A stretch of 64,000 nt of DNA from Candidatus Spyradenecus sp. (GCA_045535075.1 JAZSKX010000018.1:160001-224000), one strand, 5' to 3'; positions 16,675-51,755 are shown, counted from the stretch's first letter. A program made the numbers and translations. Notes: generated by a model from the sequence alone, not told the origin.

Positions 16675-16719
16675 AAAAAAAAACGTTCCCGTGATTGGTT
16701 CGCGGGAACGTTTTTTATT
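16675..16719. terminator. Bidirectional terminator built from an inverted pair of the GTTCCCG(C) motif
   Basis: A-run, CGTTCCCGTGA, loop, TCGCGGGAACG, T-run; lies between convergent genes. Confidence 0.9.
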
Positions 16720-16734
16720 GAACAAGGTAAAACC

Positions 16735-18411
16735 TCAGATTCTGCGGGAACGATTGAACGCCGAAACAAGCGCGAGCAAGCCCGCAAGTTCGATATTCGT
16801 GTCGATGCCGCAACCCCAAAACACTTTACCGTCGCTGTCGCGGGAAATGGAAACATAGGCGGCAGATTCCGTTGCCGAGCCGGTTCCGATTGCGTGAGAG
16901 CGGTAATCGCGCAGAGTGAAGTTCTTCCAACCTTGCGAATGAATTGCCTTAACGAATGCGTTAATCGGACCGTTCCCGCTACCGGAAATGTGATGTTCCT
17001 GCCCCTGATAAACAACCGTCGCGTTGCAGGAGACCAAAGGCTTCTTTTCCGACGTGCTTTCAAAAACCTTCAGTTTGAGCGGATCGGAAACATTAACAAA
17101 GTGTTGCATGAACGCATCGTTAATTTCTTTCGGCGTGAGTTCCCGCCCGAGTTTGTCTGCAATGCCGCCGACGACTTCGCCGACAACCGGATGCATGAGC
17201 TTCGGCAAATCGATCCCGAAATCGCGGCCGAGAATGTAGGCGATCCCGCCCTTCCCGCTCTGCGAGTTGATGCGAATAATCGCTTCGTAGTTGGCGCCGA
17301 CATCGGTCGGGTCAATCGTCAGGTACGGCACGCGCCACGGAGCGTCCGTTCCCGCGTCGCGGCGCAGGTCCATGCCTTTTTTAATTGCGTCCTGATGCGA
17401 GCCGCTGAATGCCGTAAACACGAGATCGCCGCCGTACGGATGGCGCTCGGGAACGGTCATGCGCGTGCAACGTTCGTAAACTTCGCGAATTGCGGGAAGA
17501 TTATCGAATTTTAAACCGGTTTCGATGCCGTGCGTATACATATTGAGCGCGACGGTAACGATATCGAGATTGCCGGTGCGTTCGCCGTTGCCGAAAAGCG
17601 TGCCTTCGACGCGGTCTGCGCCTGCCATTAAGCCGAGTTCGGTTGCGGCGACGCCGGTCCCGCGGTCGTTGTGCGTGTGGAGCGAAATGATAACGGCTTC
17701 GCGATTGTCCAAGCCGTTTATAAACGCCTCAATCATATCGGCGTAAACGTTCGGAGTTGTCCACTGAACGGTTTCGGGGAGATTCAGAATGATCGGCTCT
17801 TCCTTGGTCGGCTGCCAAACGTCCATCACAGCTTTGCAGCATTCCAAGGCAAAATCGACTTCCGTATCGGAGAAACTTTCGGGCGAATATTCGAGCCGGA
17901 TTTTCGTTCCCGCGGCTTCGGGCAAAAGCGATTTGACAAGTTGCGCTCCTTCGACGGCGATTTGCTTAATCTGTTCTTTCGACGCGTTCCCGAAAGTTAC
18001 GCGGCGTTGAAGCGGCGACGTCGAATTATAGATGTGAACGATTGCCTGCTTCATTCCTCGGAGAGCCTCAAAGGTTCGGCGAATCAGATGTTCGCGGCAT
18101 TGAACGAGGACTTGAACCGTTACGTCGTCCGGAATCAGATTTTGTTCGACGAGCGTTCGCGCGAAAGTGAATTCCGTATCGGACGCGCTCGGGAAGCCGA
18201 TTTCGATTTCTTTGAATCCGATATCGCAAAGCATTTTAAACATCTCGATTTTTTCTTCGACGTTCATCGGAACGGCGAGCGACTGGTTCCCGTCGCGCAA
18301 ATCGACGCTACACCAAACGGCGGGTTTTGTAATCGAATTATTCGGCCATCGGCGATTCGGCAAATCAATCGTCGGGAACGGCGCGTATTTCGTAATTTTT
18401 TCGTGTTGCAT
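16735..18411 (-). CDS. leuA: 2-isopropylmalate synthase
   Basis: WCSVDLRDGNQ, YSPESF, HTHNDRG, GNGERTGN, AFSGSHQDAI, RINSQSGKGG. Confidence 0.97.
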   Translation of the reverse strand: MQHEKITKYAPFPTIDLPNRRWPNNSITKPAVWCSVDLRDGNQSLAVPMNVEEKIEMFKMLCDIGFKEIEIGFPSASDTEFTFARTLVEQNLIPDDVTVQVLVQCREHLIRRTFEALRGMKQAIVHIYNSTSPLQRRVTFGNASKEQIKQIAVEGAQLVKSLLPEAAGTKIRLEYSPESFSDTEVDFALECCKAVMDVWQPTKEEPIILNLPETVQWTTPNVYADMIEAFINGLDNREAVIISLHTHNDRGTGVAATELGLMAGADRVEGTLFGNGERTGNLDIVTVALNMYTHGIETGLKFDNLPAIREVYERCTRMTVPERHPYGGDLVFTAFSGSHQDAIKKGMDLRRDAGTDAPWRVPYLTIDPTDVGANYEAIIRINSQSGKGGIAYILGRDFGIDLPKLMHPVVGEVVGGIADKLGRELTPKEINDAFMQHFVNVSDPLKLKVFESTSEKKPLVSCNATVVYQGQEHHISGSGNGPINAFVKAIHSQGWKNFTLRDYRSHAIGTGSATESAAYVSISRDSDGKVFWGCGIDTNIELAGLLALVSAFNRSRRI

Positions 18412-18539
18412 AAATTATATTTTTTAAAGGTTTTTAAAAATGCCGTGCGTCAAAAATCGCAAAGCGGAAGATTGTTTTTTCGGGAACGTTCCCGTAAGTT
18501 CGGCGTTGAAAAGCGGTCGCCTAAGCCGCAGAAAAAAGC

Positions 18540-18602
18540 TTACTCCCCCACGGGGAGAAGCAAAAAATCAAGACGAAGTCGGCTGTCGTTGAAAAAAATC
18601 AC
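18540..18602 (-). promoter_or_regulatory. Candidate leuA leader peptide / attenuator
   Basis: GTG-start 20-codon uORF (M)IFFNDSRLRLDFLLLPVGE with 5 Leu codons (3 consecutive), overlapping a CTCCCC-GTG-GGGGAG hairpin followed by a U-run. Confidence 0.5.
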
Positions 18603-50060: not shown

Positions 50061-50200
50061 GAGAAATTTCAATAGGTTTTCTTTGAGATTAACACGTTCC
50101 CGCAGAAAAGCACAGGCATTTTTTCTAAAGTTATCGTCATTTTCGCTTTACCGAAATAGCGAACAAAACGACGATTTATGTGTAATTTTCACAAAAAAAC

Positions 50201-51661
50201 TTAAGCCAGAAGCTTGCGGAGGATTTCGTCCACCTTGGCGGGATTGGCTTTGCCGCGCGAGGCTTTCATCACCTGACCTTTAAGAACATTGATAACTTTC
50301 TCGTTCCCGCCTTTGAAGGAGGCGACGGCGTCGGCGTTTTTCGGGTCCGCAATCACTGCGGAAATCATGGCTTCGAGCTCGCCGGAATCGGAACTCTGCG
50401 CCAAGCCTTTTTCTTTGATGATCTCGGCGGCGGATTTTTCGGTATTCCACATGTCGGCAAAAACTTCTTTTGCCTGCTGTTTGGAAATCGTTCCCGCCTC
50501 AACGGCTTCGACGAGTCCGGCGAGTGCTTCCGGAGAAATTTTGCTGTCGGCAATCGTCGCTTCCGTTCCCGCGGCGGCGATTTCGCGGAGGATTTCGTTC
50601 ACGATAAGATTCGCTGTTTGCTGCGGGGCTTTCGGGAACGTGGCGACGGATTTTTCAAAAAAGTCGCAAAGCGCGCGGTCGGGAATGAGCACGGAAGTAA
50701 TCGTGTAGGGCAAGCCGAAATCCGCCATGTAGCGGCGTTGGCGGTCGAACGGTTTTTCCGGCAAGTCGGCTTTGAGGCGGGCGATCCACGCGTCATCGAG
50801 CTTTACCGGCATCAAGTCCGGATCCGGGAAATAGCGGTAGTCGTGCGCATTTTCCTTGGAGCGCATGGAATAAGTATGCCCGGTTTCGGCGTTCCAGCCG
50901 CGCGTTTCCTGCACGATGCTTTCGCCGTTTTCGTAAGCACGGATCTGGCGTTTGATTTCAAAATTAATGCAGTTGCGCACACCGGTAAGCGAATTGACGT
51001 TTTTCATTTCGGTGCGCGTGCGCAGTTCGGATGAACCTTTCGGGCGCACGGAAACGTTCGCGTCGCAACGCAACTGACCTTTTTCCATGTCGCAATCGGA
51101 AAGCCCGGCGGCGTTCAAAATCATGCGAAGTGCGTTCAGGAGGGCGACGGCTTCTTCGGCGGAATGCATATCCGGCTCCGTGACGATTTCGAGAAGTGTC
51201 GTTCCCGCGCGATTGTAATCGACGAGCGAGGTCGTGCCGCCGTGCGTGAGTTTTCCGACGTCTTCCTCCAAGTGCGCGTGGTTGATGCGAATTTTTTTGT
51301 GTTCGCCCATCACGTTGCGGGACGGACCGGGAAGCTCGATTTCGACTTCGCCGGGACCGACGATGGCTTCTTCGGCGAGCTGCGTGATTTGGTAGTTTTT
51401 CGGGCTGTCCGGATAAAAATAATTTTTGCGCGACCAGCGGGAAATTTCCGGCATTTTCGCGTCAATCATCAGTCCGAATTTCACGGATTTTTCCACGGAT
51501 TCGCGATTGAGCACGGGAAGCGCGCCCGGAAGCGCAAGCACGGTCGGGTCAATCAGCTTGTTCGGCGGTTCGCCGAAGCCTGCGGGCGATCCCGCGAAAA
51601 CTTTGCTCTTGGCTTTGAGCTGAACGTGAATTTCCAAACCGATGACTGCTTCGTATTCCAT
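50201..51661 (-). CDS. gatB: Asp/Glu-tRNA amidotransferase subunit B
   Basis: VIGLEIHVQL, RKNYFYPD, HLEEDVGK, DYRYFPDPDL; ATG at 51661. Confidence 0.97.
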   Translation of the reverse strand: MEYEAVIGLEIHVQLKAKSKVFAGSPAGFGEPPNKLIDPTVLALPGALPVLNRESVEKSVKFGLMIDAKMPEISRWSRKNYFYPDSPKNYQITQLAEEAIVGPGEVEIELPGPSRNVMGEHKKIRINHAHLEEDVGKLTHGGTTSLVDYNRAGTTLLEIVTEPDMHSAEEAVALLNALRMILNAAGLSDCDMEKGQLRCDANVSVRPKGSSELRTRTEMKNVNSLTGVRNCINFEIKRQIRAYENGESIVQETRGWNAETGHTYSMRSKENAHDYRYFPDPDLMPVKLDDAWIARLKADLPEKPFDRQRRYMADFGLPYTITSVLIPDRALCDFFEKSVATFPKAPQQTANLIVNEILREIAAAGTEATIADSKISPEALAGLVEAVEAGTISKQQAKEVFADMWNTEKSAAEIIKEKGLAQSSDSGELEAMISAVIADPKNADAVASFKGGNEKVINVLKGQVMKASRGKANPAKVDEILRKLLA

Positions 51662-51709
51662 AAAGGGTTTAATTCTAAGAACCGCCCGCTTTTTTTCAAG
51701 CTTCGCCAT

Positions 51710-51755
51710 AAAAAAGCGTTCCCGCGAAAATCAATTCACGGGAACGCTCTTCTTT
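51710..51755 (-). terminator. groEL terminator from an inverted motif pair
   Basis: AAAAAAGCGTTCCCGCGAA...TTCACGGGAACGCT. Confidence 0.88.

Follow-up and report, generated by a model that had tools for sequence, protein, structure and literature searches.

A word resembling a DNA uptake sequence, recruited in inverted pairs into Rho-independent terminators, is our reading of a set of hairpins found in Candidatus Spyradenecus sp. (GCA_045535075.1 JAZSKX010000018.1:160001-224000). This 64,000-nucleotide stretch, hereafter the window, corresponds to G000:C5:160001-224000 in our numbering of the assembly (G000; 1.95 Mb, 18 contigs, 51.9% G+C), and contains eight hairpins carrying the word GTTCCCG. 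We give the combined reading a probability of roughly 0.55, and its parts differ in strength. The terminator part is strongly supported by the anatomy, placement, statistics and covariation of the hairpins, and it is very probable that transcripts actually end at them. About four in ten predicted stop signals in this genome are hairpins that pair one copy of the word with a second, inverted one. Uptake of DNA as the force driving the word has slightly better than even odds; it is, by resemblance to known systems, the best available explanation.

All eight hairpins reported in the original prediction are present at their coordinates, and each folds as a single strong RNA hairpin (ΔG -15.6 to -29.9 kcal/mol; z -4.8 to -9.5), with only 0-1 of 200 shuffled sequences per site folding as well as the native one. 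The 8-mer GTTCCCGC occurs 137 times in the window compared to 4.66 ± 2.0 in dinucleotide shuffles, i.e. 29 times the expectation. Six of the stems had been described as two inverted copies of the word. Five of them are indeed perfect GTTCCCG/CGGGAAC pairs, at 16675, 19601, 34149 and 51710 with GTTCCCG first and at 48184 with CGGGAAC first, while the sixth (32145-32177) combines a perfect copy in its 3' arm with a one-off copy (GTTTCC...) in its 5' arm that pairs through G.U. The two remaining sites were said to use a single copy, in the stem at 30229-30257 and in the loop at 27289-27327, and both descriptions hold: in the former the 5' arm is one full copy (30227-30234) whose 3' partner matches 5/7 bases, and in the latter the stem is unrelated to the word, one copy of which spans the apex (loop UUCC plus two pairs each side). 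The distance from stop codon to hairpin is 17-23 nt for leuA, nuoL, rpsA, groEL and a small open reading frame (ORF) below nuoF, ~30 nt for fucU and 82 nt for an exonuclease-like ORF.

The same arrangement is pervasive in the genome. GTTCCCG-N6-15-CGGGAAC occurs 169 times, and the other three orientation classes 31, 42 and 33 times. Random placement of equally many copies, done within coding and within non-coding DNA (300 runs), yields 52.5 ± 7.3 pairs, with a maximum of 74, and only 7.7 ± 3.0 pairs wholly in non-coding DNA, where we observe 119. The excess of close inverted pairs after stop codons on which the original prediction depended is therefore found. The gap between paired copies peaks at 12 (58/169), and 121/169 pairs have a non-coding location, though non-coding DNA represents 8.6% of the genome. 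A T-run after the hairpin (5 or more T among the next 8 nt) or an A-run before it (5 or more A among the preceding 8 nt) accompanies 135/169 pairs, and 74/169 have both; among the 31-42 pairs of each of the other orientation classes only 3-4 have such runs. The nearest co-oriented stop codon lies at a median of 43 nt from the hairpin centre, within 100 nt for 116/169 pairs, and 27/169 sit between convergent genes. Genes were defined by our own greedy ORF calls (1590 ORFs, 91.4% coding), which contain some errors (groEL was missed, and corrected by hand).

Terminators were predicted genome-wide with our own predictor, which requires a hairpin ending at most 2 nt from a T-rich tract, with a ΔG of -10 or lower, in non-coding DNA and at most 120 nt after a stop. 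It retrieved 258 after-stop loci: 107 with an inverted pair, 34 with a single copy and 117 without the word. Conversely, 133/169 pairs fall inside a predicted hairpin plus T-tract. Hairpins built from pairs are more stable (mean ΔG -22.3 vs -17.1). Among the after-stop terminators with a pair, GTTCCCG comes first in 124 and second in 3, so that the earlier statement that both orientations occur, with GTTCCCG first in most, was right but understated. A simple terminator scan (loops of 3-8, ungapped stems) listed 2/8 sites of the window, gave totals near chance (51 vs 37.6 ± 6.0; 44 vs 40.6 ± 5.7) and was not used. The RNA runs holding the stretch come from animal gut samples. Metatranscriptome contigs over groEL (four runs, one study), which cannot show RNA ends, end at 51747, 51750 and 51772 in three of the four runs. 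In run X1 contig depth, which cannot show RNA levels, is 119 for groEL and 4.6 for gatB; in the same run a contig of depth 64 (vs 4 for menD) ends at 48199, inside the 48190-48221 hairpin. These ends and depths agree with termination past groEL and past the ORF below nuoF, but since contigs show neither RNA ends nor levels and come from one study, we do not count them as evidence.

Conservation of the structure was followed at one locus, downstream of groEL, where a hairpin plus T-run is found in 17/17 species compared. Most species keep the arms on the word: in 10/17 they are perfect pairs, each with a different loop, and in 5/17 one arm is perfect and the other one-off. In two species (G002 and G014) both arms have changed and pairing is kept, with a third (G013) showing a G.U intermediate. 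These compensatory changes indicate that the hairpin structure is under selection, as expected for a terminator. A stable stem-loop, a U-run, placement after stops and, at the groEL locus, a structure kept in evolution are all traits of intrinsic terminators.

The word itself reads gCGTTCCCGy (logo g-C-GTTCCCG-y), where position -1 is C in 79% of copies and position +7 is C or T in 86%. Its core 7-mer, GTTCCCG, is present in 6528 copies (~1 per 300 bp), split 3359/3169 between the strands, and the 5159 copies of the 8-mer (2.6 per kb) occupy 41 kb of the 1.95 Mb, or ~2% of the genome. Most core copies (5728/6528, 88%) lie in genes, 2335 in sense and 3393 in antisense relative to transcription; all six frame/orientation classes are represented, with preferred frames giving Val-Pro-Ala (807 times) and Ala-Gly-Thr (1094 times). 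As an example, the copy within groEL arises via a synonymous GTC-to-GTT choice in a conserved Val-Pro. The strand bias of the word is weak, averaging +8% and -3% in windows whose GC skew has opposite signs. When neighbouring copies share an orientation, the preferred gaps (8, 11, 14, 17, 20, 29, ...; 22 pairs at gap 29) give a period that is a multiple of 3, which fits the in-gene frame preference; a repeated gene family at G000:C8:186-194 kb contains some of these pairs.

Some regions are nearly devoid of the word. Deserts, defined as 5-kb windows with at most 4 copies (mean 16.8), cover two Mu-like prophages, an island with a C5-methylase and NgoBV-type restriction, another with type I restriction and HamA (Hachiman-like), a low-GC gene for a 1608-amino-acid (aa) helicase and a radical-SAM/PMP-repeat region. 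Beside the deserts in recently acquired DNA there is one in the rpoB/ribosomal-protein region, and a few further such windows were left unannotated. The Mu-like regions (G000:C16:183000-222000 and G000:C8:23000-37000, the latter with 58% G+C) carry Mu Gam, a MuB-like AAA protein, a terminase, a Mu portal and a D12 methylase, and show 0-2 copies of the word per kb compared to 3.3 genome-wide.

The word is specific to one genus. GroEL places the organism in Verrucomicrobiota (72-76% identity to metagenome-assembled genomes labelled Opitutae, Puniceicoccales or Verrucomicrobiota). In each of 18 other species of the genus the hairpin pattern has 13-196 occurrences, compared to 0-2 in genomes outside it (22 genomes from 20 other genera of the family and order). 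Likewise, the 10-mer is found in 138-3301 copies in each of the 18 species and in at most 49 in the outside genomes. The 10-mer read backwards, used as a control, reaches at most 35 copies in the genus and 78 outside, showing that the outside counts of the word are background. No comparable word was detected in samples of 57-100 kb from four sister genera. In the 60 kb sampled from one sister genus (G021, L124-L128), we noticed a 14-15-nt word (GGCAACGCCCTGGG-like) in 14-17 copies, which may be a repeat or that genus's own word.

Within the genus, abundance is not homogeneous. In four species (G001, G002, G013 and G014) the word is 4-10 times rarer than in their kin: the 9-mer has ~570 copies in each of the first three and 216 in G014, compared to 2443 in G000. 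The first three still hold 76-84 hairpins per genome, while G014 holds only 13. This suggests that the drive has weakened or been lost in the G001/G002/G013 group and in G014, and that in the former clade terminators are either where the word survives longest or where it began. In a groEL tree, G001, G002 and G013 group as sister to G000, with deep-node support of 0.06-0.33; loss and gain of the word are indistinguishable with these nodes unsupported, and we claim no order of events. As for variants of the word, GCGTTTCCG exceeds its control only 3-4-fold in each of five genomes examined, and GCGTTCTCG is raised only in G014 (163 copies vs ~35 in the control), where it may represent a drifting dialect.

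The following mechanism is, in our view, the best account of these observations. In the RNA, inverted copies would pair into a 10-18 bp G+C-rich stem, the U-run after it would release the transcript, and the A-run on the other side would serve the opposite strand, many of these terminators being predicted to work in both directions. The stems would be built in place from the 8-10 nt word gCGTTCCCGy, and not brought by a mobile element. As for the word, most likely a surface DNA receptor of a type IV pilus/competence system would prefer word-bearing DNA, as occurs for the DNA uptake sequences (DUS) of Neisseriaceae and the uptake signal sequences (USS) of Pasteurellaceae; transformation with own-kind DNA would then spread the word through resident DNA over time, and terminator stems would be the cheapest non-coding places for two copies at once. 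What speaks for uptake is the joint presence of an asymmetric, hyper-abundant word on both strands, its restriction to a lineage, its pairs in terminators and its scarcity in acquired DNA. The original prediction had taken the pairs as the strongest support for uptake, and this is not borne out: any word made dense by any DNA-level force should end up in terminator stems, and the pairs therefore cannot tell such forces apart. At least as much weight falls on the word's specificity for the genus and on its deserts in prophages and defence islands.

The genome does contain genes of a competence kit: ComEC, DprA, a 984-aa secretin, an operon encoding PilB-like, PilT, PilB-like and PilC proteins, and six or more prepilin-like genes, four of them forming an operon whose products have unclassified globular parts. 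Several observations nevertheless weigh against uptake, or against the terminator figures. Neither PF12836 nor TIGR00426 retrieved ComEA, the top match being an 805-aa protein below the cut-off. The kit genes occur in non-competent control genomes too, so that competence is allowed, not shown. ComEC and PilT are present in 19/19 species, including the four word-poor ones, and hence the kit does not track word abundance. Our search for a genus-specific receptor produced no candidate; it covered one of the four proteins of the operon, a prepilin-like one of 345 aa, for which sister genera have homologues (33-39% identity). The 124:3 orientation bias finds no explanation in uptake. Word-free terminators (117/258) lie in DNA that is as rich in the word as that around the pair terminators (3.30 vs 3.36 per kb; p 0.99), discarding the possibility that they are concentrated in foreign DNA; those located in word-poor DNA are 5/131 of the word-free and 0/127 of the pair terminators. 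Last, both the gene calls and the terminator predictor are our own crude scripts.

The main rival to uptake accepts the same terminators and proposes that another genome-wide, DNA-level process keeps the word abundant: it could be bound by a protein of chromosome organisation, repair or self/non-self discrimination, or reflect biased repair tracts, and whatever word such a process favours would find its way into terminator stems. Any slow lineage-specific drive would account equally well for the saturation, for the genus specificity and for the scarcity in mobile DNA, and the failure of two models to find ComEA, together with a kit that is the same in word-rich and word-poor species, also speaks for it. 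There is a precedent in HIP1 of cyanobacteria, a hyper-abundant octamer whose role is different and still debated. Yet the word is non-palindromic, unlike HIP1 or methylase sites. Chi and KOPS are orientation-dependent and strongly skewed with replication, and we reject a replication-oriented signal of that type because the strand skew found here is weak (+8%, -3%). To our knowledge, the full set of traits (both strands, all frames, ~2% of the genome, terminator pairs and foreign-DNA deserts) has been described only for uptake sequences. We regard this DNA-level alternative as possible, and clearly less probable than uptake.

Two other scenarios start from the hairpins and not from the word. 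A factor could read the hairpin itself, for example a dimer that binds the palindromic DNA or a protein that binds or processes the RNA stem, with in-gene copies as a side effect. The narrow spacing (58/169 pairs at gap 12), the strong 124:3 orientation preference and the arms that stay on the word across species while loops change would all be expected from such a reader, but it leaves unexplained the 5728/6528 single copies within genes on either strand (2335 sense, 3393 antisense); 117/258 terminator loci lack the word, and species with changed arms keep pairing through compensatory changes, as they would for plain structure; we consider it unlikely. Less credible still, and in our opinion very improbable, is that the hairpins are repetitive extragenic palindromic (REP)/REPIN or miniature inverted-repeat transposable element (MITE)-like mobile palindromes, spread by a Y1 (RAYT-type) transposase. 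Two Y1_Tnp genes are present in the genome, REPs are likewise extragenic palindromes located after genes, and some hairpin flanks are alike. However, 167/169 loops are distinct and most flanks unrelated, the shared ones being 3' ends of paralogous genes plus a common stretch that separates the stop from the hairpin; single copies in genes make up 88% of the word's occurrences, and the groEL hairpin is in the same place in 17 species. Moreover, the Y1_Tnp (IS200/RAYT-type) genes, at G000:C10:1-1100 and G000:C14:6500-7200, are each flanked by palindromes of a different family, with CAGGT...ACCTG arms. That the hairpins are not one mobile repeat, as had been argued from their loops and flanks, is thus sustained genome-wide. 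Together, Y1_Tnp and the CAGGT...ACCTG palindromes have the appearance of a real REP/RAYT system; in one copy of this palindrome the loop carries the abundant word.

Comparison with known systems helps to place the recruited, uptake-like word. The DUS of Neisseriaceae (GCCGTCTGAA and its dialects) is read by the minor pilin ComP. Like it, the word described here is short, non-palindromic, present about once per kb or more on both strands, mostly genic with frame preferences, and lineage-specific; it takes up a similar ~2% of the genome, and its inverted pairs form terminator stems. Unlike DUS, it belongs to the phylum Verrucomicrobiota, is unrelated in sequence, shorter (core of 7-9 nt) and denser (2.6 8-mers per kb), and is, in the genomes searched, confined to a single genus where DUS spans a family; we identified no ComP homologue, ComEA was not found, and it is resemblance that leads us to propose uptake. 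The USS of Pasteurellaceae (AAGTGCGGT or ACAAGCGGT core) shares with it a 9-nt core, weaker flanks and inverted pairs in terminators, and differs in phylum, word and density; its receptor is only predicted (ComN or PpdA). REP/REPIN elements (RAYT, Y1 HUH) resemble our hairpins in forming hundreds of extragenic palindromes after genes, with a Y1 transposase in the genome, but here the arms are a mostly in-gene word, hardly any two loops are alike, the hairpins keep their positions from species to species and the palindromes flanking the Y1 genes belong to another family. HIP1 (GCGATCGC) is a hyper-abundant lineage-wide octamer inside and outside genes as well, but a palindrome recognised by methylases, whereas the word here is asymmetric and forms hairpins only as inverted pairs.

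The likeness to inverted DUS and USS terminators that had been invoked for the window is real, judging from passages in two publications (10.1101/2025.10.24.684340; PMC13020248). In the passages available, ~70-75% of inverted DUS pairs in Neisseriaceae and ~88-91% of USS pairs in Pasteurellaceae fall in predicted terminators, and uptake words take up to ~2% of the genome (10.1101/2025.10.24.684340). Terminators holding an uptake word reach 22% in some Pasteurellaceae and 37% in some Neisseriaceae, according to PMC13020248. The corresponding figures here are 133/169 pairs inside predicted terminators and 141/258 loci with at least one copy, although predictors differ and the figures are only roughly comparable. 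In the same passages, sequence-specific DNA uptake is described for only two proteobacterial families (10.1101/2025.10.24.684340, PMC13020248). Our literature search retrieved no description of this word, nor of uptake sequences in Verrucomicrobia/Verrucomicrobiota.

The individual sites of the window illustrate the variety of contexts in which these hairpins are found. The hairpin at 16675-16719 (perfect pair, GTTCCCG first; ΔG -25.9, z -6.7) has an A-run before and a T-run after it and lies between two convergent genes, a 185-aa ORF (16102-16659, +) and leuA (16735-18411, -); it is predicted as a terminator on both strands, 22 and 18 nt past the stops. At 19601-19640, a perfect pair with A-run and T-run (ΔG -17.7, z -5.0) follows the 271-aa exonuclease-like ORF (18710-19525, +) mentioned above, and the hairpin with the word at its apex (27289-27327; ΔG -21.8, z -6.9) is 17 nt past the stop of nuoL (25364-27274, +). 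Two hairpins frame rpsA. The one upstream (30229-30257, +; ΔG -15.6, z -5.0) is followed by a T-run, and we are less sure of its terminator role because it is 247 nt from the previous stop; the one downstream (32145-32177; ΔG -19.4, z -4.8) lies 21 nt past the rpsA stop (32125). The perfect pair at 34149-34190 forms a 15-pair stem (ΔG -27.0, z -7.5) between fucU (33686-34120, +) and, on the opposite strand, an 85-aa ORF (34209-34466, -), 18 nt past the stop of the latter. The hairpin in the rare orientation, CGGGAAC first (48184-48227; ΔG -29.0, z -9.5), is 19 nt past the stop of a 138-aa ORF (48241-48657, -), downstream of nuoF and ahead of menD. Finally, the perfect pair at 51710-51755 (ΔG -29.9, z -8.2) lies 23 nt past the groEL stop (51771, -) and ahead of gatB. 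By contrast, our predictor finds a two-way terminator-like hairpin without the word after argA (8650-8680), and other word-free ones at 357-394, 14804-14833, 18538-18561 and 45252-45287.

Some neighbouring features deserve mention. The longest ORF for gatB begins 6 nt past the groEL terminator (window 51664-51709), but since its family match begins only with residue 16, translation probably starts ~45 nt downstream of that. On the minus strand, 51699-51672 resembles a promoter (TTGAAA-16-TAGAAT). Elsewhere in the genome, a paralogous gene family with an Arg-rich C-terminal tail (G000:C5:63879, C5:153722, C5:51142, C5:53172, C5:106128, C9:57074, C9:33441 and C12:56165) shows in each case a conserved stretch of ~18 nt (ATGAATTAATATATCACT, printed strand) after the gene, followed by a word-pair terminator. 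Judged by its sequence, the tail looks like a sorting signal, and the stretch may be a shared 3' UTR (untranslated region) element.

Independently of uptake, our results provide a practical rule for annotating the genus: where an inverted pair of the word precedes a T-run, a transcription unit can be taken to end. In our view it is an even bet, again by analogy with the systems above, that this genus possesses a genuine DNA-uptake-sequence system whose word is new, very short and very dense. If it does, it would be the first one outside Proteobacteria and only the third lineage known, and sequence-based self-recognition would have evolved repeatedly. It would also predict natural transformation in uncultured gut Verrucomicrobiota, and offer a ready marker separating resident from foreign DNA in these genomes. 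The word-poor and word-rich species constitute a natural experiment, and comparing their genomes could point to the receptor.

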